From: an uncultured Gemmatimonadales bacterium
GTDB taxonomy: Bacteria > Gemmatimonadota > Gemmatimonadetes > Gemmatimonadales > GWC2-71-9
Direction: 5' to 3'
Length of the DNA stretch: 14,206 bases
NCBI GenBank assembly: GCA_963844035.1
Contig: CAWJMT010000026.1
Location: 1-14,206, forward strand
The notes under the pieces are model-generated. The model made no database searches, was not told the origin of the DNA, and saw nothing but the letters and a program-made list of their open reading frames with translations. The translations under genes and the position numbers were made by a program. Of this stretch, positions 2,190-14,043 are shown piece after piece. How positions within the stretch are numbered: the first letter of the stretch is position 1; the number at the start of each line of letters is the position of its first letter.

Positions 2190-2224
2190 CGCTTTACTCC
2201 AGCTTGACTCCTGCAGCGGACCTT
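2190..2224 (+). promoter_or_regulatory. Putative SARP-dependent promoter of the EEP gene
   Basis: cgc-TTTACTC(2193-2199)-cagc-TTGACTC(2204-2210)-8 nt-GACCTT(2219-2224). 11-bp period; same layout upstream of 6329 and 13974. Confidence 0.55.
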
Positions 2225-2272
2225 GGGCGCGTCCCTCAAAACAGACTCGCACAAACTCGCAAGGAGGCTCAC

Positions 2273-3424
2273 ATGGCTAGGGCAGTCATTAGCGTCGCCG
2301 CGGCACTCATCGTTCTCGGCTGTGACGCTCAGCAGGTGACAGGTCCGGTATCGCCGGGCGGGGCTGATGTCACCGCCAACCGGTCGGCTGCCGATGAGTC
2401 CCGGATAGGGACGCCCGGTGTCACGGCGCTGACCTGGAATGTCTATGTCGGGGCGGAAGTGGAACGCGTCCTCCAGGCGCGGACACCCGACGAAGCCGTG
2501 GCGATCGCCACGCAGCAATGGGCGAACGTCCGCGCCACCAATTTCCCCGCACGCGCTGGACGCATCGCGGCGGCAATCGCCGCGCGGCATCCCGAGCTCG
2601 TGGGCCTTCAGGAGGTGGCGCTCTACCGGACCACCGACCGGCCGTTCGAGGAGCTCGCAACGCATGTCGCCTATGACTTCCTTCAGATCGTGATGGATTC
2701 GCTCACAGCGCGCGGACTCCACTACCGGGCCGCGGCAATGGATCGAACGACCGACATCCAGGTGCCGGTGATCGCCGGATTCGACTCGTCGGGCAGCCCA
2801 ATCCTGGCGGGCGTGCGGTTCACCGATGGCGATGCCGTCCTGGTGCGTGGTGACGTCCCCTTCACGCATCCTCGATCCGGCGTGTACGTCGCGCACCAGA
2901 CGGTGTCCATCGGCGGCGTCACGACGGGCGTGTACCAGGGCTGGAGCTCGGTGGAAGCATTGCTCGACGGTCGGACGTACCGGTTCGTCGTCACGCATCT
3001 GGCCGGTCAGGACGTGCAGAGCACGCAGCTGGCGCAGACCGCCGAGCTCATCTCTCTGCTCCGCGGTGAGGCTCGGCCGACGATTCTCGTCGGCGACTTC
3101 AATTCCGATGCGTATGGCGCCGATCCCACCCACGCGACGCCAACGTACCCGACGCTGCGCGCCGCCGGATATTCGGACAGCTGGATCGAGCCGGAGCAGC
3201 GAGACCCTGGGCTCACCTGCGGCGCACAGCCGGACCTCCTCAACGCGCGCCGGACGTTCGATCAGCGCATCGATTTCATCTTCACGCGGAACCTGCCTCG
3301 GCGCGCTGACGCGGTGCGTCGAGAAGTCGTGGGTGATCGCATCGTTGATCGCCGCGCAGGGTTGTGGCCGTCCGACCATGCCGGCGTCGTCGCAACGTTC
3401 CTGGCGCCGAATCGGGGCAAGTAG
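2273..3424 (+). CDS. Endonuclease/exonuclease/phosphatase (EEP) family lipoprotein (383 aa)
   Basis: AAGGAGG RBS before ATG 2273. Signal peptide with lipobox VLGC (Cys17). EEP motifs LTWNV, LVGLQEV, VVTHL, ILVGDFN, RIDFIF, PSDH. Confidence 0.9.
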   Translation: MARAVISVAAALIVLGCDAQQVTGPVSPGGADVTANRSAADESRIGTPGVTALTWNVYVGAEVERVLQARTPDEAVAIATQQWANVRATNFPARAGRIAAAIAARHPELVGLQEVALYRTTDRPFEELATHVAYDFLQIVMDSLTARGLHYRAAAMDRTTDIQVPVIAGFDSSGSPILAGVRFTDGDAVLVRGDVPFTHPRSGVYVAHQTVSIGGVTTGVYQGWSSVEALLDGRTYRFVVTHLAGQDVQSTQLAQTAELISLLRGEARPTILVGDFNSDAYGADPTHATPTYPTLRAAGYSDSWIEPEQRDPGLTCGAQPDLLNARRTFDQRIDFIFTRNLPRRADAVRREVVGDRIVDRRAGLWPSDHAGVVATFLAPNRGK

Positions 3425-3452
3425 GACGTGCATGCGCTCGGCTGCCGGCTGT

Positions 3453-3481
3453 TTGACTTTCCCGTGCGCGGCGGGGAAGTT
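3453..3481 (+). promoter_or_regulatory. Putative sigma70-like promoter for the kinase, overlapping an inverted repeat
   Basis: TTGACT(3453-3458)-17 nt-GAAGTT(3476-3481). Inverted repeat ACTTTCCCG(3456-3464)/CGGGGAAGT(3472-3480) with one G-T pair. Confidence 0.35.
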
Positions 3482-3499
3482 CTGAGTCCGAGGTGAGTC

Positions 3500-6262
3500 G
3501 TGTCGCCCTTCTTCGAGCGCCTCCGCGCGGCGTTAGCACCGGACTATGAGCTGCTTCAGGAGCTTGGAAGCGGCGGCATGGGGATGGTGTACCTCGCCCG
3601 GGAGGTCGCCCTCGATCGCCCGGTGGCCGTCAAGGCGCTCAGGCCCGAGCTCGTCACAGCCGAGGGCGTCACGCGATTTGTGCGCGAGGCCCAGCTCCTC
3701 TCGAAGCTGCGCCATCCGAACATCGTCGTCGTGCACAAGGTCGACAAGCGGGACGGCCTCCATTTCTATGTGATGGAGCAGCTCGACGGTGACACGTTGC
3801 AGCGCCGTCTCGAGACGCAGGGTCGCCTGACGCACGATGAGGCCCGCAAGCTCGGGCGCGATCTCCTCGAGGCGCTCGACGTGGTGCACCGGCTGGGCGT
3901 GATCCACCGCGACGTCAAACCTTCCAACTTGTTCGTGATCGGCCGTCGTGCCGTGCTGACCGACTTCGGCATCGCCAAGCAGGCGACGGGCAACGGGCTT
4001 ACCGACCCATGGTTCACACCCGGGACAGCGGCGTATATGGCTCCGGAACTGTTTCGCCCAGTCGGAGGGGCGGGGCTACTTCGCCGGGTCGAAGCGAACG
4101 AACGGACAGACACATACGCCGCCGCCATGGTGATCTATGAAGCGTTCACGGACCGCCGCTGGGAGAAGGGCTCGCCTCAGGCGGGCGAGTGGGCCGGTGT
4201 GCCGCGCGGCGTGGCCCGTGTGTTGCGTCGCGCCCTGGAACTCGATCCGGAGGATCGCTGGCCGGATGCGGCTTCTTTCCGACGGGCCCTATGGCGGACG
4301 CGAGTGTGGCCGTATCGCCGCAATGTCATCGGCGTAGCGCTGGTTTGCGCGGTCATCGGAGCTGTGCTGCGGCCGTTGCCGCCGTCCACAACCCTCCACC
4401 TATCTCTTCAGGTCGCTGGCGCGGCGCCGGGATTGCCAACCTGGCTCGGGGACTCGATCTCTTGTGGGCTGGCGCGGCGTCTGAGCGCCTATCCGCAGCT
4501 CTCGGCGCACTGCGCTTCGGGGTTGGCCCGCTGGTGGCCCCGCGGACGTCGCGGCCTCGACGTGCGGCCCGAGATCGAGAACGACGCCGGCCGCGCACGG
4601 GTGCGGTTGGCGAGTTCGGTCGAGGGTATCGACGGACTCGAGGTGCGGGGTGCGCCGGACCGGTGGCCCGTGCTGGCCGACAGTCTCTCCGACCTCGTCT
4701 CGGCGGTGCTCTTCGGGACGGCGAAACTGCTCGACCCCGCGATGTCGCCGCTCGTGTTGCCCAAGAACCCCGATGGGCGGTTGGCATTTCTTCGGGCCGA
4801 GCGCGCCTTCGCACAAGGGCGCTGGGGGGAGTCGCGCAGCGCGTACGCCGCCGCTGCCGCGCTCGACCCGACCTGCTGGATCTGCTATTGGCGCCACGCC
4901 GAGGTCGGTCGCTGGTTCGATTTGGCAGACGACCCGGTGGACACCGCGCGTTATCACGCCCACGTAGCCGATTTCCCGGACTATTACCAGACCTTGATCC
5001 GGTCGGAGCGGCTTCCCCAGCGGGTACGACTCGACTCGCTCGCGGCCCTCAGTCGCCGCTGGAAGGATTTCCTCTTCGGCCAGTTTCGCCTCGGCGATGA
5101 GCTGCTGCACCGCGGGCCGCTCGTTGGGCATCCCCGGCGGGAGGCCGTCGCGCTCTTGGAGAACGTCGTCAAAGTCCAGCCCCAGTTTGCGCCCGGGTTA
5201 CAGCACCTTGCGCAGGTGCGCATCGCCGATGGCGACTCGGCGGAAGCCGCGGTCGCGCTCGCTCGCGCCGAGCGCCTGAGCAGTCCGGGCGATCCGTCGT
5301 TCGCCACGCTCGCGCTCCTCGAGGTGGCCGCTGCGTGGCGGTTTCTGCCGCGCGAAGCAGCCCTGCGACGGACCGATGAGCTCGTGGCCCAAGCCAAGCA
5401 AGCGGGTATCCTCGACATCGATGCCGGGGCTCGCTTCCTGGCCGGTTATGGCAGCCCGGAGGGAGAGCTTGCGCTTGCCGAGCGGCTGTTGAGCGAGCCC
5501 GGCTTCGCGCGCTCGGCCGGCATCGCCCGCGTCCTGGCCCTGGTCGGCCTGGGACGGCCCGACACGGCGCTCGCCTTTGCCGGGATACTCGCGAAGCAGT
5601 TCCCGGACCTGGCGCTCTTCGCCACCGAGCTGGCCGCCGCCACCATTCTTTTCGACCGAGATTCGGTCCGGTACCCCACCGCGTGGCCGGCGGTGCGGGC
5701 GGCGTTGGCGCGCGACACGACCGACCGGCGAGCGATCTGGATGCTTGGGATGGTCGAGGCTGGAGGCACCCGGAGCGCGATGCACCATGAGGATGCGGCA
5801 TCACAACCGCTGGTCGAGTTGCTTCAGGCCACGACCCTGGCACAACGGGGCTATGTGGCGTTGGCGTTGGAGACCAGCGACGCGCTGACCGTCATTCCGG
5901 CCCGACGGATCACCGACCCATTCTTCCGAGCGGCATTGCACCTGCTGCGGGCTCAGTGGTATGAGCGAGCGGGACGCCCAGCCCATGCACGGTCCGAGCT
6001 CGTGTGGGCCGAAAACACCGACGTGGTCGGCTACCCCAAACGTGACCCACAACCGGCTGAAGTGGACTGGGCGTTCGCGCCGCTCGCGGCGTGGCGGCTC
6101 GGGGTCCTGCTTGAGCAGGCGGGGGGAACGCGCGACGACTTCTGCCGCGCCTATCGCACGGTCGCAAGCCGGTGGGCGGGTGGTGAACCGCGCTTCCGGA
6201 CCCGGGCGGAAACCGCTGCCCGGCGACTCGCATCGCTCGGGTGTGGGCGTGGCCCACGATGA
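3500..6262 (+). CDS. Hanks-type Ser/Thr protein kinase with a probable transmembrane segment and long TPR-like C-terminal region (920 aa)
   Basis: GTG start after GAGGTGA. Motifs LGSGGMGMVY, VAVK, FVRE, HRDVKPSN, DFG, GTAAYMAPE. Hydrophobic VIGVALVCAVIGAVL (about 4325-4369) follows RR. TPR-like helices include AERAFAQGRWGESRSAYAAAAALDP. Confidence 0.92.
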   Translation: MSPFFERLRAALAPDYELLQELGSGGMGMVYLAREVALDRPVAVKALRPELVTAEGVTRFVREAQLLSKLRHPNIVVVHKVDKRDGLHFYVMEQLDGDTLQRRLETQGRLTHDEARKLGRDLLEALDVVHRLGVIHRDVKPSNLFVIGRRAVLTDFGIAKQATGNGLTDPWFTPGTAAYMAPELFRPVGGAGLLRRVEANERTDTYAAAMVIYEAFTDRRWEKGSPQAGEWAGVPRGVARVLRRALELDPEDRWPDAASFRRALWRTRVWPYRRNVIGVALVCAVIGAVLRPLPPSTTLHLSLQVAGAAPGLPTWLGDSISCGLARRLSAYPQLSAHCASGLARWWPRGRRGLDVRPEIENDAGRARVRLASSVEGIDGLEVRGAPDRWPVLADSLSDLVSAVLFGTAKLLDPAMSPLVLPKNPDGRLAFLRAERAFAQGRWGESRSAYAAAAALDPTCWICYWRHAEVGRWFDLADDPVDTARYHAHVADFPDYYQTLIRSERLPQRVRLDSLAALSRRWKDFLFGQFRLGDELLHRGPLVGHPRREAVALLENVVKVQPQFAPGLQHLAQVRIADGDSAEAAVALARAERLSSPGDPSFATLALLEVAAAWRFLPREAALRRTDELVAQAKQAGILDIDAGARFLAGYGSPEGELALAERLLSEPGFARSAGIARVLALVGLGRPDTALAFAGILAKQFPDLALFATELAAATILFDRDSVRYPTAWPAVRAALARDTTDRRAIWMLGMVEAGGTRSAMHHEDAASQPLVELLQATTLAQRGYVALALETSDALTVIPARRITDPFFRAALHLLRAQWYERAGRPAHARSELVWAENTDVVGYPKRDPQPAEVDWAFAPLAAWRLGVLLEQAGGTRDDFCRAYRTVASRWAGGEPRFRTRAETAARRLASLGCGRGPR

Positions 6263-6267
6263 CCCTC

Positions 6268-6302
6268 CGCTTTACCCCCCCTTGATCGTGCCCTCATATC
6301 CT
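6268..6302 (+). promoter_or_regulatory. Putative SARP-dependent promoter of the Tat-lipoprotein/GMC pair
   Basis: cgc-TTTACCC(6271-6277)-cccc-TTGATCG(6282-6288)-8 nt-TATCCT(6297-6302). 6268-6285 matches 2190-2207 at 15 of 18 nt. Confidence 0.55.
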
Positions 6303-6328
6303 GCACGCGTCCCTAGAAGGAGACGCAG

Positions 6329-6890
6329 ATGCAGGCTGTCTCTCGCCGACAGGTTCTCAGCCAGCTCAGTCTGATCGCCGCCGGGCTCGCGGTGGCATGC
6401 ACGCCGCTCCGCATCCTGACGCACGCATATCCCTCCGCGTTCGACGACGATGCCATACTGCTGGACGAGGTACTCCGAGCGTTCGTCGCGGTTGTGATTC
6501 CCGGCGCGCCCGGCGACGATCCTGACCTCGTCAGAGCCTTCACCGATCGCGAGCTGCCGTTTGCCCGTTTCGCTCCGTTCTTCGGCGCCGATCTGTGCCG
6601 GCGCGCCCGGGCACGGTTCGGCGCGACGTTCCCCCGACTCGCGGCAGCCCAACGGGCCGCCATCATTCGAGATGGCCTCGCCGCCGACGGCACGACCCGC
6701 AAGCTGTACGGCAGCGCCATCGTGCTCGCCGAGGTCGCGTTCTACGCCGGGATATACGACCCGCAACAAGGGGTGCGCCCTGATCGGCTTCGAAGGCGGT
6801 CAACACTCGCGTCTCCTGACCGACATCACCCACCCCGACCCCGTGCGGTTCTTGCCCAAGGCTCTGACGGCCGACGGCAATCACGTCTGA
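6329..6890 (+). pseudogene. Tat-signal lipoprotein, probable small partner subunit of the GMC flavoprotein, interrupted by an apparent +1 frameshift near 6770-6773 (about 186 aa if repaired)
   Basis: AAGGAG RBS; twin-arginine SRRQVL; lipobox LAVAC; VIPG and FPRLAAAQRAAII resemble gluconate 2-dehydrogenase subunit-3-like proteins. After AGIYDPQQG the plausible sequence continues in the +1 frame (CALIGFEGG...ADGNHV*) and stops 15 nt before the GMC start. May be a sequencing error in an intact gene. Confidence 0.7.
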
Positions 6891-6905
6891 CCCTGCGAGG
6901 CACTC

Positions 6906-8435
6906 ATGCGAACGATTCACGCAGACGTCCTGATCATCGGCACCGGTTTCGGCGCGGCGGCGCCGGCTTTGCGGCTCGCCGCAGCGGGGGCACGGGTCGT
7001 GATGCTCGAGAAAGGGCCGCGCATCGACACGGCCACGTTCCGGCAGACTTCGGATCCGACGTACGTCCTCAAGTACCTGAAAGGAACCGCGGGGGACCAT
7101 CTGAGCCTCACGTACGCCGAGGCGCTGGGAGGCGGCTCGGGCTTCTATGAAATGGTATCGTTGCGCGCACCATCACGGGCGTTCGATCAGGTCGAGCCGG
7201 GCGGCCGGCGGTTGTGGCCCGCAGGACTCGACCGCCACGCGCTCGATCCGTACTACGAGCGCGCCGAAGCGATGTTGCACGTGGCGCAAATCGCGCCCGA
7301 GGAAGTGCCCAAGACCGGCCTCGTCTTCGCGCAACTCATGAAGAATCTGGGCTACTCCGTGGACCGCGCGCGCTATGCGGTACGCGGCTGCCAGGGGAGC
7401 AGCTTCTGCGTGACCGGCTGCATCTACGGCGCGAAGCAGTCGCTGTTCCTCAACTACCTCCCACAGGCATGCTCGGCCGGCGGCGCAATCGAAACCGACA
7501 TCGAGGCCATGGCGATCCATCCGCTGCCGGGGTTGCGGCAGGCCAGCGCCCGCGGCTTGCGACAGGTCCCATACCGTTACGAGATCATCGCGCGCCGCCG
7601 TACTGGAGCGCAGGAGCTGCGCCGCTACGTGGCGCGCATTGTGATTCTGGGAGGCGGTACGGTTGGGACCGCGAAGCTCTTGCTGCGGTCGCAGCCGTAC
7701 CTGCCGTTCCTCAGCGAGCACGTAGGACGGAACATTGCGTACAACGGCAGCGTCAAAGTGGCCGCGGTGTTGCCGGAGGGGTTCCCGGACGGCGACATGT
7801 TCACCGGCCGCACGCATCCGGGGATGGTGAGCTACGAATTCCTCGCGTCCCACGGAATTACCGTGCATGCCGTGAAGGCGCTGCCCCTGATGCTCGTGTC
7901 AGGCGCCCACCTGCGGCCTGAGGACCGCAGTCCCATTTCGGGTTGGTGGGGCGTGCCGCACGGTGAGTTGATGCGCAAGCTGAGATACCGCGTCGTCATC
8001 CTCGATGCGTTCGGACTCACCCCGCCCGGCGGCAGGCTCGAACTTGCCGATGGCGACAGGCTTGGGCTGTCGCTCCGGGTGGATTCCTCGCTCGAGCAGT
8101 ACCACAGGCGGACTAAGGACGTGCTCGAGAGCATCCTGGTGCGAAATGGCTGCCGCCTGATACAGGCGGACTTTCTCGACAAGAGCCTGCAGCCCGAGCA
8201 GGGGCTTCACTTCTCCACCGCCCACCAGGTCGGTTCCTGCCGGATGGCCGATGCCAAGAAGAACGGCGTGGTGGACGCGAACGGCGAGGTGTTCGACTAC
8301 CCGGGGCTGTACGTGTCCGACGGCGCCGCGATTCCCTCGTCGCTCGCCGTCAACACCAGCCTCACGATTCTCGCGAACGCCGAGCGGATTGCGGATGGCG
8401 TGGTGGAACGCTACGGGCTGCGCGCGGCGGCCTGA
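6906..8435 (+). CDS. GMC-family FAD-dependent oxidoreductase (509 aa)
   Basis: GAGG RBS. FAD-binding IIGTGFGAA...VVMLEKG; LGGGS; CQGSSFCVTGC..GAKQS; GGGTVGTAKLLLRS; TAHQVGSCRM; VVDANGEVFDYPGLYVSDGAAIPSSLAVNTSLTILANAERIA. No signal peptide. Confidence 0.93.
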   Translation: MRTIHADVLIIGTGFGAAAPALRLAAAGARVVMLEKGPRIDTATFRQTSDPTYVLKYLKGTAGDHLSLTYAEALGGGSGFYEMVSLRAPSRAFDQVEPGGRRLWPAGLDRHALDPYYERAEAMLHVAQIAPEEVPKTGLVFAQLMKNLGYSVDRARYAVRGCQGSSFCVTGCIYGAKQSLFLNYLPQACSAGGAIETDIEAMAIHPLPGLRQASARGLRQVPYRYEIIARRRTGAQELRRYVARIVILGGGTVGTAKLLLRSQPYLPFLSEHVGRNIAYNGSVKVAAVLPEGFPDGDMFTGRTHPGMVSYEFLASHGITVHAVKALPLMLVSGAHLRPEDRSPISGWWGVPHGELMRKLRYRVVILDAFGLTPPGGRLELADGDRLGLSLRVDSSLEQYHRRTKDVLESILVRNGCRLIQADFLDKSLQPEQGLHFSTAHQVGSCRMADAKKNGVVDANGEVFDYPGLYVSDGAAIPSSLAVNTSLTILANAERIADGVVERYGLRAAA

Positions 8436-8445
8436 CGCAACTCAC

Positions 8446-8468
8446 CTCGAGGGCTATTCCTCGGGTTT
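8446..8468 (+). terminator. Possible weak hairpin terminator between convergent genes
   Basis: CTCGAGG(8446-8452)/CCTCGGG(8459-8465) stem with one G-T pair, followed by TTT, in the 35-nt convergent gap. Confidence 0.3.
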
Positions 8469-8470
8469 CG

Positions 8471-9202
8471 CTACGGCCCACCCATCGACGCAACCGCGGC
8501 AGCCGACCCGGTGAGGATGAACCAGTCGAGGCTCACGGCCACGACCCAGTGGATCACGGCGACGTACCAGATCGATCCGATCCGGCCGGTGACCCAGCCG
8601 AATACGAGGCCGGCCGGGAGGGCCGCGAACGTTTCGTTCAGCGCCCGGCCGAAATGAGCCGTCACCGACACGGCCGTCTGGACGGCGTTGGCCGCGCTGC
8701 TGCCCACTTTCCCCCGCAATCCGAACAGCAGGACGCCCCGAAACAGCGCTTCCCAGGCGCCGAAATACAGGAACGTGAGCAGGGCGTACGGAATGAAGCG
8801 CGTGGGGGCAGTGACGAGGGACGGGTCGAGTGGATACACGGCCCGCACCGCCGGCGCGGCGGCGCCGAACTTCCCCGCGAGAATCGCCAGGGGAATGCCG
8901 ATCGCGAGCCACCGCAGGCCGAGCTGCCAGCGCCCGAAGCCCAGGCCGAGTTGCGTCCACGTGAGCCCGGTGAGGCGGCGCGCGAGCAGCATGGGAACGA
9001 CGCCCAGGACGAGTCCTGAACCGAGGTAGTGAAGCCACGGCGGCAGGGGCCGGCTCGTGAGCGCGTGCCAGCCGCGCGCCGGCGAGAACACGCCGACGGC
9101 GTCGGCGCGCATGAGGTAGTAGAACGCGACCAAAGCGATGGTTGCCACGACGGGCAACCACGCCGCGCCGCGCGCCGTCGAACGGGCGGGGATCGCGGTC
9201 AT
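8471..9202 (-). CDS. CPBP (CAAX protease-like) intramembrane protein (243 aa)
   Basis: Several hydrophobic helices; motifs WEALFRG, VTAHF, RIGSIWYVAVIHW. ATG 9202 overlaps the upstream TGA (ATGA). Confidence 0.85.
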   Translation of the reverse strand: MTAIPARSTARGAAWLPVVATIALVAFYYLMRADAVGVFSPARGWHALTSRPLPPWLHYLGSGLVLGVVPMLLARRLTGLTWTQLGLGFGRWQLGLRWLAIGIPLAILAGKFGAAAPAVRAVYPLDPSLVTAPTRFIPYALLTFLYFGAWEALFRGVLLFGLRGKVGSSAANAVQTAVSVTAHFGRALNETFAALPAGLVFGWVTGRIGSIWYVAVIHWVVAVSLDWFILTGSAAAVASMGGP

Positions 9203-10185
9203 GCCGCCGCCTTGCCGCGTTCCGCGAGCCAGGCGATCGTCTCGGCCAATCCCTGGCGCAGGGGACGCGGCCGGTACTCCAAGGCGGCGCGCGTCGGCTC
9301 GACGTCCACTCGCCGGTCCTCGAGGAAGACGCGGACCCATCCCGGCGTAATCGGCGTCGTGCCGCCCAGCTGACCCCACCACACGGCAGCGCGGGCCACC
9401 GCGAGCGCCGCCTGCCATGGCAGGGCGAACACGCGGCGCCGCACCCCCGTGAGCTCCTCCACCAGCTCGAGGAACTTCCGGAACGAGGCGTTCTCGCCAC
9501 CCAGCAGGTAGTGGCTGCCGGCGCAGCCGCGTTCCGCCGCGAGCTGGATCCCCGTCGCGACGTCGGCCGCGTGTACGTAGTTGCCGAGCACGTCGCCGTC
9601 GGCGATGCGCACTCGGAACCGGCCGCTCAGGTACAGCGCGATGATTTTCGTGAGCGCGTTGGCGTCGTGCAGGGGCCCCGGTCCGTAGACGCGCGTCGGG
9701 TGGACCAACACCGCATGTCGGCCCGTCGCTGCATACGACTCAACCAGGCGCTCCCCCGCGAGCTTCGTCTCCTCGTAGATCGTGGGCCGGCTCGCTGCGC
9801 CGCCCACCGGCGCCGGTTCGTAGGGGGGCAGCGTGAGCAGCGTGGAGACGTGGACCAGCCGCTCGACGCCCGCGTCGTACGCCGCCTCGAGCAGGGTGGC
9901 GACGGCGTGTACGTTCACGGCCGCGAACTCCAGGGGGTCGCGCGACCAGGCGCGTGCGCAGGCCGCGAGGTGCAGCACGGTGCGGGCACCCTGCACCGCG
10001 CGGGTCAGCGCGGCGGCGTCGCGAACGTCGCCCCGGTGTACCTCGACGCGGTCCAACAGGGCGGTCCCAAGCAGCTCGGGTCGGCGTGCCAGGATCCGCA
10101 CCGGCCGGCCCTGCGCCACAAGGTCCCGGACGACGTAGCTCCCGATGAACCCAGTAGCGCCGGTCACGAGGGTCAGGTCGTTCAT
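9199..10185 (-). CDS. NAD(P)-dependent epimerase/dehydratase, extended SDR, DFR/HpnA-like (328 aa)
   Basis: LVTGATGFIG Rossmann motif, HLAA, VHVST, catalytic YEETK, PTRVYGPG. ATG 10185 overlaps the upstream TGA (ATGA), with GGAGGTG RBS. Confidence 0.9.
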   Translation of the reverse strand: MNDLTLVTGATGFIGSYVVRDLVAQGRPVRILARRPELLGTALLDRVEVHRGDVRDAAALTRAVQGARTVLHLAACARAWSRDPLEFAAVNVHAVATLLEAAYDAGVERLVHVSTLLTLPPYEPAPVGGAASRPTIYEETKLAGERLVESYAATGRHAVLVHPTRVYGPGPLHDANALTKIIALYLSGRFRVRIADGDVLGNYVHAADVATGIQLAAERGCAGSHYLLGGENASFRKFLELVEELTGVRRRVFALPWQAALAVARAAVWWGQLGGTTPITPGWVRVFLEDRRVDVEPTRAALEYRPRPLRQGLAETIAWLAERGKAAA

Positions 10186-11105
10186 GCGGCACCTCCGGTG
10201 GTCGCTCGGGCGAAGAGCGGCCCGGGGTGGAAGGACGGTAAGATCGGCACGGGACGGACGACCGCGGCGGGCATGACGACGCCCTCCAGCGCCAGCGCAA
10301 GCACCACCCCCGCCACCGAATCGATCGCGAAATGGTTCTGGGTGTAGACCGTCGCCACGCAGACGCCGGCGGCCTCGATCGCGAGCAGGGTGGCGACGGC
10401 CGGCCGGCACCAGCGCCAGCCCACGTACGCAATCGTCACCGCGCCGGCGACGTGGGAGCTTGGGAACGCGGTCCCCATCGAGTCGCCGACCTCTATGGCG
10501 GCGTGCGTCAGCCGGTAGAAGAACCCGTCGGTCAGGGCCCCGGCGTAGCGGATCGTCGTGTGACTCGGCCCGTCGACCGGAAAGAGGATGTAGATGAGAT
10601 AGCAGCCGATGTACGTCACGAGCAGGCGGAAGGTCATGTCCCGCATCGCCGCCGTCCGCCCTGCGAGCCCCATCACGAGCGGGGGCAGGAAGATGAGCGG
10701 GTAGTAGGAGAAGTAGATGAAGTGCATTACCTCGCTCAACCACACGTACGGCATCCCGGGCATCCAGACGGCGTTCACATGCACGCCGAACAGGGCGAGG
10801 TCGAGTGCGGCAATCGGGGCATCGTTCGCGCCGGTGTGCAGCAGCTCGCGAACGAACCCCAGCTCCGACCAGAAGGCCACGAGCAGAAGGAGGGGATAGA
10901 TCTCCCGCAGCGCGCGGCCGGCCCGGGTCAGGCGGTCCTTCGCCCGCTCGAGCAGCCACGGCAGCCCTGTCGCGGCGAGGTGTGTGGCACAGATCCACGG
11001 CGCATAAGGAGTGCGCAGCAGGACCACGCTCCACACGGCCGCGAGGAGCAGGTTGTAGCCCGCGAGCAGGCGGTCCACGGGTAGCACGGCGCGGTCTAGA
11101 GCCAT
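10182..11105 (-). CDS. PAP2-superfamily integral membrane enzyme, Aur1/IPC-synthase-like subtype (about 307 aa)
   Basis: AFPSSH and NHFAID catalytic motifs; FIYFSYY and YILFPVDGP resemble the PAP2_3/Aur1-like group; multiple TM helices. ATG 11105 follows GGAGG and overlaps the upstream gene by 10 nt. Confidence 0.85.
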   Translation of the reverse strand: MALDRAVLPVDRLLAGYNLLLAAVWSVVLLRTPYAPWICATHLAATGLPWLLERAKDRLTRAGRALREIYPLLLLVAFWSELGFVRELLHTGANDAPIAALDLALFGVHVNAVWMPGMPYVWLSEVMHFIYFSYYPLIFLPPLVMGLAGRTAAMRDMTFRLLVTYIGCYLIYILFPVDGPSHTTIRYAGALTDGFFYRLTHAAIEVGDSMGTAFPSSHVAGAVTIAYVGWRWCRPAVATLLAIEAAGVCVATVYTQNHFAIDSVAGVVLALALEGVVMPAAVVRPVPILPSFHPGPLFARATTGGAA

Positions 11106-12076
11106 TGGGCCTCCCGGTACCACGCCGCCGTTTCGGCCATCCCCTGCTGCACGCCGTAGGCGGGACGGAACCCGAGCTCTGCGACGGCGCGGATCGGATC
11201 GCACACCCAGCGCTGCTGGGTGAGGTCGCGCACCCGTTCGCGGTTCAGGATCGCGGGTGTCCGACGCAGCGCGGCGCACGCTTCCGCCGCGAGGGCGATG
11301 ACGCGGGCGATCGGCACGGGCACGCTCACCCGCAGCGGCGCTCGGGCGAAAATGGCGCCCACGACGTCGGCGACCCGCCCCCAGCTCACGGGCTCGGGAT
11401 GGGCGAGGCAATAGGTGCGCCCCACAGCGCGCTCGCTCGTTGCGGCCGCGAGGAGGCCTTGCACCAGATCGGCGACGTAGATCAGGCTCACTTCACGGTC
11501 CCATGCGCCGATGGTGAGCGCCACGCCGCGGCGCACCAGGCGAAAGAACTTCAGCACCCCCTTCTCGCGGGGCCCGTATACGGAAGATGGGCGGATGACG
11601 ACCGTGGGCACCCGGTCGGTGTAGGCATGCACCACCGCCTCCGCGAGCAGTTTGGAGTGGCCGTAGTGGGAGATCGGGAACGGCACCGTGTCGGGCGCGA
11701 GCGCTTCCCCGTTGCGGCAGGGCCCCAGAGCGGCAATCGACGACATCACGATCACCCGCGGCGCCGAGCCGTTGTGCGTGGCGGCGGCCCGCAGCACGCA
11801 CGCCGTGCCTTCGGTGTTGACGGCGTAGTAGTCGGCGGGGTCGCGTGCCTCGGTGAGCCCGGCCAGATGGAACACGACGTCGGCGCCTTCGCAGGCGCGC
11901 GCCAGTGCGGGCGCGTCCGCGAGGCCCGAGTCGCAGTAGTGGAGCTCCAGTCCCTCGAGCCAGCGCCGCGACGCGCCCGGCCGCTCGACGCACACGACCA
12001 CGTCGCCCCGCGCCCGCAGGGCCTCGATCAAGTGGCTTCCGATGAAGCCCGCTCCGCCCGTCACGACCGCTCGCAT
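11096..12076 (-). CDS. NAD(P)-dependent epimerase/dehydratase, extended SDR, 3-beta-HSD-like (326 aa)
   Basis: GGGAGGA RBS; VVTGGAGFIG, FHLAG, MSSIAA, catalytic YGHSK, RPSSVYGP, IYVADL. Confidence 0.92.
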   Translation of the reverse strand: MRAVVTGGAGFIGSHLIEALRARGDVVVCVERPGASRRWLEGLELHYCDSGLADAPALARACEGADVVFHLAGLTEARDPADYYAVNTEGTACVLRAAATHNGSAPRVIVMSSIAALGPCRNGEALAPDTVPFPISHYGHSKLLAEAVVHAYTDRVPTVVIRPSSVYGPREKGVLKFFRLVRRGVALTIGAWDREVSLIYVADLVQGLLAAATSERAVGRTYCLAHPEPVSWGRVADVVGAIFARAPLRVSVPVPIARVIALAAEACAALRRTPAILNRERVRDLTQQRWVCDPIRAVAELGFRPAYGVQQGMAETAAWYREAQWL

Positions 12077-12122
12077 AACGTCCTCCCGTTCCGAGGTCCG
12101 TGCCCAACATCGCGCGTGGGGG

Positions 12123-13070
12123 TCAAGGGGCGATTAAGCGGCGCGGCGGCAGCGTGAGGGCCAGCCGGTCTCCTCCCGGGCGCCAGGCCAGCCAGACGAA
12201 CCGAGCCAGGTCCCGGAGGAACGCCGTGTACGTGGGGTAGACCTGAGCGCCCGCCTGCCGCAGCTCCTCCGTCAGCAAGCGATGGAGTGCCGGCAGGTTG
12301 TACCAGGGCACCGCGGGGTAGAGGTGGTGCACGAGGTGATAGTTCAGGTTGCACATGAAGAAGGAGACGAACCGGTTGCTGATCACGGTGCGCGTCGCCG
12401 TGAAGCGGTCGCCGTGGCCCGTGAGCACGTGCTCGGCGAGGGTGCGCACATTGGTGAGCTGGCGCGCGAACAGCGCCGGAAAGATCCAGAGTTGGAGCAG
12501 CGTCGCGAGCGGGACCGCGCTGAACGCCACGACCATCGCCGCGGCGATGATGGCGTATTCCACCGCAATGTCGCGGCGCTCGCCGGGCGCGGCCCGCAGG
12601 GCGGCGGTCGGGCCCACTCGATAGAAGCCGAACACCTCGCCGCCCACGAACATCAGGCAGAACAGCGCGGCAAGGGCGCGTGGGTTGTGCGTCGCGTTCT
12701 CCAGCTCGTCCGGGTCGCGGGCCCCGCGCTCGTAGCGGTGATGCGGCAGATGGCCGACGCGGTACGCCGTGACCGACAGCGCGGCCGGCAGACCGCACAC
12801 GAACGCCACCCAGCGATTGAAGCCGCGGTCGCGGAACAGGATCCGATGCACCCCCTCGTGCATCAGGATCGCGAGCCCCTGGATCGTCGCCCCGATCAGG
12901 AACCAGCAGACGAACCGCACCGGCAGCAGCGGCACGTGCAACGCGGTCCATCCCGCGCCAGCCCAGACGCCCGCGAAGGCGAGGGCCTTGAGGTTCCACC
13001 ACGGCCGCAGCGCGTGCAGCTCCCGGATGCGGGCCTTCTTGGCGGCGGGGATGTCGCGGATGGTCAGCAT
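12123..13070 (-). CDS. Membrane di-iron fatty acid desaturase/hydroxylase family protein (315 aa)
   Basis: His boxes HEGVH, HLPHH and NYHLVHH plus AEH, then YPAVPWYNLP. ATG 13070 follows GGAGG. No cytochrome b5 fusion seen. Confidence 0.9.
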   Translation of the reverse strand: MLTIRDIPAAKKARIRELHALRPWWNLKALAFAGVWAGAGWTALHVPLLPVRFVCWFLIGATIQGLAILMHEGVHRILFRDRGFNRWVAFVCGLPAALSVTAYRVGHLPHHRYERGARDPDELENATHNPRALAALFCLMFVGGEVFGFYRVGPTAALRAAPGERRDIAVEYAIIAAAMVVAFSAVPLATLLQLWIFPALFARQLTNVRTLAEHVLTGHGDRFTATRTVISNRFVSFFMCNLNYHLVHHLYPAVPWYNLPALHRLLTEELRQAGAQVYPTYTAFLRDLARFVWLAWRPGGDRLALTLPPRRLIAP

Positions 13071-13080
13071 GGCCGCCTCC

Positions 13081-13974
13081 CTAGCGGGCCGAGACCGCGG
13101 CCCGCGCCGCGAGCTCAGCCAAGAGCCGCTCGACCGCGGCGACCACAGCCGCCGGCCGCTCCTCGTACACGAAGTGTCCGGCACCGGGGACCGAGTCCAC
13201 GGCGAACATGACGAGCCGCTCCCGCAGCAGCGTGACCTCGGCTGCGCCGGGCGCGCCGGAATGCGGCGTGCCGCCGGCCATGAGGCGGACCGGACAGCGG
13301 ATCGCGCCGAGGTGCTCGCGCAGCAGCTCCGGCTCGCGCGCGTGCGCCATGCGGAGATAGGCCTTCAGGGTCGCGTCGAGGTCGGCGGCGGCGCCGGCCG
13401 TGTAGCCCGCGACCACCTCCTCGGTCACCCAGGCGGGATCCCCGGACGCCTCGACGAGGGAGTCGCGGATCTTGCGGCGGATCAGCTGCACGCCGCCGAA
13501 CAACTTGATCCACGGCGCGAACCGCATCGCGCGGCGGAGCCCCGGCGTCGCCGCCGCTTCGGCGGGCCCACCGTCGAGCGCGATGATGCCCCGAACGTGG
13601 TCGGGCCTCCGGTAGGCGAGGCGGTACGCCATCGACGCCCCGATGGAGTGCGCGACCACCACAGCGGCACCCAGGCCGAGCGTGTCCAGCGCGGTTGCGA
13701 TCCGGTCGGCCTGCGCGGTGAGCGAGTAGTCGGCGCGCTCGGGCCGGCTCGAGCCGCCGATGCCGAGCGGCTCCACGACGACTACGCGGTATCCTGCCGT
13801 CGTGAGCCGCGGGATGAGGTTGCGGAAGCCGTACGCCGACCCGAACAACCCGGGCACGAGCACTACGGGCTCTCCCGCCCCGGCGTCGGTGACGCGCAGC
13901 GTTTCCTGTGGCGCGACGAGGATGTTCCAGGTGCGCGATGAATCGGTGAACAGCAGCAGCGCGAGCAGCCACAT
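13081..13974 (-). CDS. Alpha/beta fold hydrolase (297 aa), short hydrophobic N-terminus
   Basis: VVLVPGLFG, EPLGIGGSSRP, nucleophile elbow AHSIG, catalytic His in GAGHFVYEE; GGAG RBS. Confidence 0.9.
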   Translation of the reverse strand: MWLLALLLFTDSSRTWNILVAPQETLRVTDAGAGEPVVLVPGLFGSAYGFRNLIPRLTTAGYRVVVVEPLGIGGSSRPERADYSLTAQADRIATALDTLGLGAAVVVAHSIGASMAYRLAYRRPDHVRGIIALDGGPAEAAATPGLRRAMRFAPWIKLFGGVQLIRRKIRDSLVEASGDPAWVTEEVVAGYTAGAAADLDATLKAYLRMAHAREPELLREHLGAIRCPVRLMAGGTPHSGAPGAAEVTLLRERLVMFAVDSVPGAGHFVYEERPAAVVAAVERLLAELAARAAVSAR

Positions 13975-14000
13975 GGGGGCTCCGGTGACGGGGGCGCCCC

Positions 14001-14043
14001 AACGTGGCGGTCGAGTCTTAAGGAACAGTCAAGCGGGAATGCA
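14001..14043 (-). promoter_or_regulatory. Putative SARP-dependent promoter of the six-gene operon
   Basis: Minus strand: TGCATTC(14043-14037)-ccgc-TTGACTG(14032-14026)-ttcc-TTAAGAC(14021-14015)-8 nt-CACGTT(14006-14001). 11-bp period. Confidence 0.45.

Follow-up and report, generated by a model that had tools for sequence, protein, structure and literature searches.

Described SARP systems and the locus

Most of the closest described systems belong to the SARP family of activators. AfsR of Streptomyces coelicolor (PMC10936776; 8K60, 8HVR) joins a winged helix-turn-helix (wHTH)-BTAD fold to a nucleoside triphosphatase (NTPase) domain; it contacts the bases T−38 and T−27 of its promoter, where the 3′ of two repeats with an 11-bp period lies 8 bp from a suboptimal −10 element, and its NOD/TPR part inhibits the protein until ATP binds. 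The medium SARPs CdaR, CpkO and FdmR1 (PMC10972967) have about 600 aa with SARP and NTPase domains and are encoded next to their targets, in whose promoters heptamers repeated in direct orientation cover the −35 region. Precedents for a kinase linked to a SARP-family protein are AfsK–AfsR (PMC10972967) and PknH–EmbR of Mycobacterium tuberculosis (PMC4601284; 2FEZ), in which an activator of envelope-modifying targets meets a receptor Ser/Thr kinase via its FHA domain. A 2024 review describes the SARPs as exclusively actinobacterial (PMC10972967), and no SARP/BTAD regulon, operator or binding site for Gemmatimonadota was found in the literature, which was covered mainly by titles and abstracts, with most subscription papers outside the coverage. 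Here, we analyzed a stretch of 14,206 nt (hereafter, the window; the whole of contig C26, CAWJMT010000026.1) from an assembly (GCA_963844035.1; 3.47 Mb, 84% complete) of an uncultured Gemmatimonadales bacterium, i.e., a host outside Actinobacteria. The window carries a gene for a SARP-NTPase and four copies of a tandem promoter box.

The locus shares with AfsR the fold, the NTPase domain, the promoter geometry, and counterparts of the DNA-backbone residues W74 and R94 and the acidic E76. It differs in the repeat (CTTGA here, CGTT(T/C)ATCG in AfsR), in the base-reading residues T88/R92, in size (622 aa), in showing no recognizable TPR tail, in its Gram-negative phylum, and in its many predicted envelope-type targets as against the one sigma-like gene of AfsR. 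Judged from its sequence, the protein is not an AfsR orthologue: the C-terminal TPR, the afs-box consensus and T88/R92 are all missing. The protein may belong to the medium SARPs, a class of about 600 aa with a SARP domain, an NB-ARC-type NTPase and no TPR tail: it resembles them in length, in having SARP and NTPase domains (the latter matched by AAA_16, not by NB-ARC), in the repeats and in gene position, whereas the regulon here is dispersed, its targets are of a non-antibiotic kind, and the gene is paired with that of a membrane kinase. As in PknH–EmbR, a SARP-family activator of envelope-modifying genes would be tied to a receptor Ser/Thr kinase, a link suggested here by gene adjacency; in place of the FHA domain of EmbR, the protein has an NTPase domain, and no FHA match was obtained. 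The OmpR/PhoB activators also bind as winged-helix tandems one helical turn apart near the −35 position, and weak profile matches to them were obtained in PDB, but the protein here has BTAD and NTPase domains instead of a receiver domain.

We consider it likely that the four boxes are binding sites of a Gemmatimonadales SARP-NTPase subfamily, most likely of the copy at 246–2114, which would activate the EEP gene, the Tat–GMC pair and the lipid operon in the manner of AfsR. The features concerned are as follows.

246–2114 (−): SARP-NTPase, 622 aa, the predicted box binder (Pfam, structure model, Foldseek, Walker motifs)
2190–2224 (+): box 1 and weak −10 of the EEP gene, with +1 predicted at 2231; the SARP gene adjoins back-to-back
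2273–3424 (+): EEP-family phosphoesterase (PF03372); lipoprotein-like signal judged by eye
3453–3481 (+): ordinary sigma70-type promoter of the kinase, with a 17-nt spacer and without the tandem box (sequence)
3500–6262 (+): Ser/Thr kinase with one hydrophobic segment and a TPR-like domain, a predicted receptor kinase (Pfam, hydropathy)
6268–6302 (+): box 2 and weak −10 of the Tat/GMC pair, with +1 predicted at 6309
6329–6890 (+): twin-arginine-signal partner protein, no Pfam family; frame broken here
6906–8435 (+): GMC oxidoreductase; best NCBIfam match cholesterol oxidase, far under the cut-off
8471–9202 (−): CPBP/Rce1-like intramembrane protease (Pfam)
9199–10185 (−): NAD-dependent epimerase/reductase, HpnA-like under the cut-off (Pfam, NCBIfam)
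10182–11105 (−): PAP2_3 membrane phosphotransferase (Pfam)
11096–12076 (−): NAD-dependent epimerase/reductase (Pfam)
12106–12140 (−): box 4, internal promoter before the 12076 epimerase gene, with +1 predicted at 12099; it overlaps the stop of the desaturase gene
12123–13070 (−): fatty-acid desaturase family protein (Pfam)
13081–13974 (−): alpha/beta hydrolase, heading the lipid operon (Pfam)
14001–14035 (−): box 3 and weak −10, before the lipid operon; predicted +1 at 13994

The tandem box and its promoter geometry

A previous inspection of the letters (the sequence-only reading) had proposed a shared SARP-type layout for three promoters. The three strings are present where it had placed them (2190–2224 +, 6268–6302 +, 14035–14001 −), each with CGC ahead of the first heptamer, an 11-bp period and an 8-nt spacer; their hexamers lie 48, 27 and 26 nt ahead of the start codons of the EEP gene, the Tat gene (distance counted by hand) and the lipid operon, and the match counts of 15/18 and 12/18 between the sites were reproduced by hand. 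Two of its statements stood in part. One is the list of promoters, which was right for these three and incomplete: the fourth site, which lies 29 nt upstream of the epimerase gene that begins at 12076, had been overlooked. The other is the motif, in which the tandem heptamers stood and the core CGC-TTnAC did not: the conserved core is C-TTGA, heptamer position 3 being G in 102/115 sites for the first repeat and in 108/115 for the second. A "third unit" upstream of the lipid-operon site is not conserved and was rejected (of 115 sites, 0 have TTGA at −11 and 4 have TT). The element can be written as CTTGA-N6-CTTGA-N11-nAnnnT.

That the motif exceeds the background was also verified: the post-hoc pattern of the sequence-only reading occurs three times in the 3.47-Mb genome, always in the window, as compared with 0 and 1 in Markov simulations. 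When heptamer position 3 is left free (CTTnA-N6-CTTnA-N12-AnnnT), the genome contains 11 matches at the 8-nt spacer, four of them in the window, while spacers of 6, 7, 9 and 10 nt gave 0, 1, 3 and 0 matches and periods of 9, 10, 12 and 13 gave 1, 0, 1 and 0; the direct-repeat period is thus 11. These scans exclude the AT-rich end of contig C4 beyond 410 kb, where the assembly scan revealed a drop in G+C from about 66% to 25–29% (C4:410000–455565), probably a chimeric or contaminant segment. All of the 11 sites precede plausible starts, as judged by eye, and at this relaxed pattern the predicted regulon appears to be genome-wide, i.e., wider than the window. Position 3 is other than G (T or A) only in the four window sites among the 11. 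An out-of-sample matrix, built from 10 sites ahead of orthologous genes in relatives, was used to rank 6.85 million positions: the window sites took the 2nd (6271), 5th (12106–12140 −), 28th (2193) and 51st (14032) places, and the 1st was a site directly behind a paralogous SARP gene on contig C37. Scores of the window sites from a later in-sample matrix were not counted as evidence.

More boxed promoters were observed at C5:4686, C5:5945, C9:134737, C10:64015, C31:92339 and C35:14856, and weaker ones at C5:206419, C21:20886, C21:23574 and C18:3928. The genes behind them encode a major facilitator superfamily transporter, a methyltransferase–P450 pair and several small secreted proteins without a Pfam match.

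The SARP-type geometry, in which direct repeats have a period of 11 or 22 bp, was borne out: as in AfsR promoters, 11-bp direct repeats are followed at 8 nt by a −10-like hexamer. When the hexamer is set as −12 to −7, the first T of each repeat falls at −38 and −27, and two SARP protomers would lie head-to-tail on the CTTGA repeats. Across the 61 genomes compared below, the strict pattern gave 164 matches at the 8-nt spacer and 7 at 9 nt. A pyrimidine–purine step, which played no part in site selection, occurs at the predicted −1/+1 in 74/115 sites, as compared with 13–31% at 17 neighbouring steps. We infer that nAnnnT is the −10 element, a view supported by this +1 signal. Because neither TTGA stands 16–18 nt from the weak −10 hexamer, sigma70 region 4 could not use the repeats itself and would dock on the SARP dimer in place of a −35 element.

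The repeat is identical to the housekeeping −35, and its first copy, with a 20-nt spacer to the −10, is reminiscent of MerR promoters, in which an inverted repeat lies inside a long −35/−10 spacer. Activator-independent or MerR-like promoters, with TTGAC as a sigma70 −35 at that distance, or a doublet read by another sigma factor, are alternatives that we regard as highly improbable. Housekeeping promoters of the genome peak at a spacing of 17 nt (59 promoters, with about 7 at other spacings and 12 at 20 nt); the two repeats are conserved to the same degree and run in direct orientation, not inverted, and the spacer is unconserved; and the element is absent from family f2 (12/12 genomes) and follows the SARP subfamily even inside single genera. 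A MerR-type promoter was rejected on the conservation profile, with its two direct repeats and unconserved spacer. A generic sigma70 scan of the window gave 0 sites, which is uninformative where −10 elements are weak.

Association of the box with the SARP-NTPase subfamily

Among 61 genomes, the box was found in 37/37 with a member of the subfamily and in 4/24 without one (E cut-off of 1e-50, chosen after the gap between 1e-44 and 1e-53 had been seen; partial genes included); within the window's family, the corresponding values were 28/28 carriers and 2/9 non-carriers. A phylum sample of 200 genomes gave 66/70 carriers and 21/130 non-carriers (cut-off chosen between 1e-54 and 1e-59, where a gap was seen; scores taken for 13 candidates from each genome; G183 left out), and the family genomes new to this sample gave 51/54 and 7/27. 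All of these were tallied by hand from the result tables. The contrast is seen within genera: carriers have 3 and 3 sites in g13, 4, 6 and 5 in g48, and 3 and 13 in g60, whereas non-carriers have none (5/5, 5/5 and 3/3 genomes, respectively). Genera g24, g8, g11 and g1 agree, and g45, g17 and g18 are mixed. Since BTAD proteins are nearly ubiquitous in the order (60/61 genomes), the tracking by the box is specific to the subfamily. The strict pattern had 164 matches in 41/61 genomes and 1 for the reversed control.

Direct repeats with an 11-bp period near −35 are likewise typical of OmpR/PhoB regulators. The genome encodes three members of the OmpR family, and the target functions would be plausible under phosphate limitation, with the EEP phosphoesterase and lipid remodelling forming a phosphate regulon under such a response regulator. 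The distribution across genomes gives this very little credence: a PhoB-like regulator, a label inferred from sequence and a kinase neighbour and the only one of the three OmpR proteins profiled, is present in 54/61 genomes, and the box occurs in 36/54 with it and 5/7 without it. Around two PstS-family genes, the matrix gave at best 8.3 and 6.3 (threshold, 15) within 1.5 kb of flank. As the box does not track the PhoB-like gene and was not found in these 1.5-kb pstS flanks, a PhoB/Pho box was rejected.

The assignment to the SARP-NTPase subfamily is further illustrated by the gene neighbourhoods. Around the SARP gene, 39 strict sites lie in 0.70 Mb (44 loci, a few of them duplicates between G004 and G005), as compared with 0–3 at other spacings; by our own arithmetic, this density of about 56 per Mb is about 40 times that of carrier genomes as a whole (roughly 1.3 per Mb). 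Around SARP-like genes of other taxa, 0 strict sites were found in 0.60 Mb (35 loci). In a set of 60 distinct SARP loci (0.99 Mb), a site lies within 250 nt of the SARP 3′ end in 19/60 and divergently at the 5′ end in 7/60, and among DNA-binding families, the SARP alone is shared across the loci (57/60; the next, an ECF-sigma-like family, 7/60). The motif is kept at orthologous genes there, a check which the sequence-only reading had itself suggested: boxed EEP 6/6, Tat 4/4, epimerase 4/4 and hydrolase 3/6. Among relatives, the box precedes the Tat genes in 6/6. For hydrolase homologues in general, it was found in 4/29 rows, mainly where the hydrolase heads the lipid operon, and the box as a general hydrolase feature was rejected on these counts; the hydrolases of L068 and L078, directly 3′ of the SARP gene, have no box.

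The proposal that the EEP gene, the Tat–GMC pair and the lipid operon form one system gains from other genomes, in which the units recur with the box beside a SARP gene: EEP and Tat–GMC in L162, L177 and L233, and the lipid operon in L161, L173, L238, L045 and L050. Since several loci combine units with the SARP gene, the association of the three blocks is not confined to this genome. The idea that orthologues keep the divergent SARP/EEP layout was rejected, as most have a kinase directly upstream. In a subclade (L148–L154, L156), a boxed divergent small gene (about 150–210 aa, family without a name) replaces the kinase directly upstream of the SARP start. Back-to-back box pairs serving divergent genes were observed at G046 C1:49212–49292, G044 C5:579673–579753 and L237.

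The boxes could be SARP sites at which a paralogue, either the C37 copy or a longer SARP of another subfamily, has the main or an equal part in reading the window promoters. The best out-of-sample site directly behind the C37 paralogue and the similar recognition helices speak for this, as do sites in genomes without an orthologue and sites beside longer SARPs (divergent in G024 C80, about 5 kb off in G034 C48, and upstream of the C4-type SARP in G000 and L121). We nonetheless hold it to be unlikely: the window sites form a sequence class of their own within the genome, orthologues of the EEP, Tat and epimerase genes are grouped with SARP copies of the window type, and G002 and G003, which have C4-type SARPs, contain only 1 and 0 strict sites. 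The 246–2114 copy remains the preferred regulator, although the C37 paralogue (43% identical) has its own adjacent site and could share the regulon, so that the local protein may not act alone. Immediately ahead of C4-type SARP genes, at C4:122101 (+) and in L121, stands a box-like site that lacks the first C. Such sites suggest auto- or cross-regulation among SARP subfamilies.

The candidate regulator, its kinase neighbour and the predicted targets

In the 246–2114 protein, an OmpR-type wHTH (PF00486) and a BTAD (PF03704), both above the cut-off, are followed by an AAA_16 domain with Walker A (residue 290) and Walker B; the Pfam scan of the 622 aa gave no match for a C-terminal TPR family or NB-ARC, and the subfamily length is about 620 aa. 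Its structure model (pLDDT 93.8) has AfsR (8K60/8HVR) and EmbR as the top Foldseek matches (TM 0.69–0.75, E about 1e-9 to 1e-7), and a PDB search with the N-terminus found nothing as a single sequence and EmbR and AfsR as a profile. According to the model, the N-terminal domain is predicted to fold like AfsR/EmbR, with the order, wHTH then BTAD, that defines the SARP family. The close relatives are all from Gemmatimonadota, so that the non-actinobacterial host assumed by the sequence-only reading was also borne out. AfsR W74, R94 and E76 have counterparts in 28/28, 28/28 and 27/28 sequences, on an ungapped offset that is assumed and is backed by the EmbR alignment. In the proposed mechanism, the NTPase domain would keep the SARP off until released. 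A −10-like hexamer for the SARP gene itself lies within 2150–2190 (−), back-to-back with box 1, and occupancy of the box could also affect this promoter.

The kinase at 3500–6262 has one hydrophobic segment at about residue 276, followed by a TPR-like domain in which two Cys residues near the C-terminus are conserved; the kinases of SARP loci likewise have one such segment near residue 270 and the Cys pair. This suggests that the TPR-like domain is an extracytoplasmic sensor. In 31/60 loci, a kinase-like gene with the orientation of the SARP gene ends within 200 nt upstream of the SARP start, and the order is rearranged in the window, where the SARP gene is divergent from the EEP gene and the kinase gene lies downstream of the latter with its own promoter. 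The neighbouring membrane kinase would supply the signal given elsewhere by the TPR domain of AfsR or, for EmbR, by PknH.

Several observations weigh against the SARP-NTPase reading or parts of it. Phosphorylation hardly altered activation by AfsR in vitro (PMC10936776), and therefore the kinase step, which is proposed from gene neighbourhood, is the weakest link; the effects of AfsR phosphorylation are disputed (PMC10936776 versus PMC10972967), and the window kinase is not co-transcribed with the SARP gene. T88 and R92 of AfsR are not kept, the matching positions being E/V and mostly V/T, although this change together with the kept backbone residues is consistent with a different repeat sequence. 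Non-G heptamers are more frequent where the SARP lacks His63 (11/36) than otherwise (5/82), which, like the non-G class of the window sites, speaks for a local tuning of copy and box; but this covariation of helix and motif is confounded by genus, as most come from one genus, and L161 combines a window-type helix with all-G sites. The pyrimidine–purine step was not seen at equal distance in 59 housekeeping-type promoters (13/59). No site occurs within the examined DNA of 25/60 SARP loci or in G207, G103 and G198, which have a high-scoring family member, and sites occur where no orthologue was found (G134, 5; G054, 8; G040, 3; G087, G177 and G180, 2 each). The genomes are also related, so that kinship overstates the p-values. 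G119 has two relaxed matches, and the orthologues of G023 and G166 are split or frameshifted.

As for the targets, 108 open reading frames downstream of boxes in relatives fall into 43 clusters, the largest being EEP (9), the Tat partner (9), a nameless lipoprotein-like family (7), hydrolase (7), epimerase (7), YdjM-like (7) and several small secreted families without a Pfam match (38/43 representatives scanned). At C37:204138–215605 (L217), the second subfamily member is divergent from a kinase and followed by a boxed phosphodiesterase/VTT unit. This SARP locus faces a cluster of a serine palmitoyltransferase (SPT)-like PLP enzyme (best NCBIfam match serine palmitoyltransferase, under the cut-off), GNAT, epimerase and PAP2, and the arrangement recurs in relatives. 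The window epimerase (11096–12076) and PAP2 (10182–11105) are 39% and 33% identical to their counterparts in the cluster. Spt, bCerS and CerR are frequently encoded in one cluster (PMC11334938, which does not mention Gemmatimonadota). From the likeness of the epimerase and PAP2, sphingolipid or envelope remodelling can be put forward as a tentative output, somewhat short of an even chance; lipid-modifying enzymes and the many secreted proteins and lipoproteins would make envelope remodelling the likely form.

Some observations concern the genes and the assembly themselves. The frame of the Tat partner is disrupted by one extra base near 6761–6764 (window 6755–6770), as compared with two orthologues, and the genes of relatives are intact (186–217 aa as called); the broken gene is read as a pseudogene or an assembly error. 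A PDB search with the EEP protein gave a single match, too weak for substrate assignment. Near-identical duplicates (C15:5900–16400 and C31:137500–148200, including a 956-aa BTAD protein; C5:206400 and C21:20900) are read as a strain mixture or duplicated assembly.

The mechanism is considered to be of a known type, while the host, the operator, the kinase pairing and the targets appear to be new; in particular, the host lies outside the actinobacterial range given by the review, which is the point of novelty. A wider picture, which we lean slightly against, is a lineage-wide two-gene module of receptor kinase and SARP-NTPase that would replace a two-component system in a eukaryote-like manner: the TPR sensor, which in AfsR forms the tail of the protein itself, would instead be located outside the membrane on the partner kinase, the sigma70 −35 word would have been adopted as a tandem operator, and paralogues would divide an envelope/sphingolipid-remodelling regulon through small changes in helix and motif. 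For an abundant, mostly uncultured phylum, the analysis predicts a sharply defined operator with its start sites, and it names candidates for the regulator and for a kinase acting upstream. Many unannotated secreted proteins are gathered into one predicted regulon, tied by gene neighbourhood to a serine-palmitoyltransferase-like cluster. The finding suggests that sigma adaptation of the AfsR type may serve envelope and lipid functions, not antibiotics, in a Gram-negative lineage.

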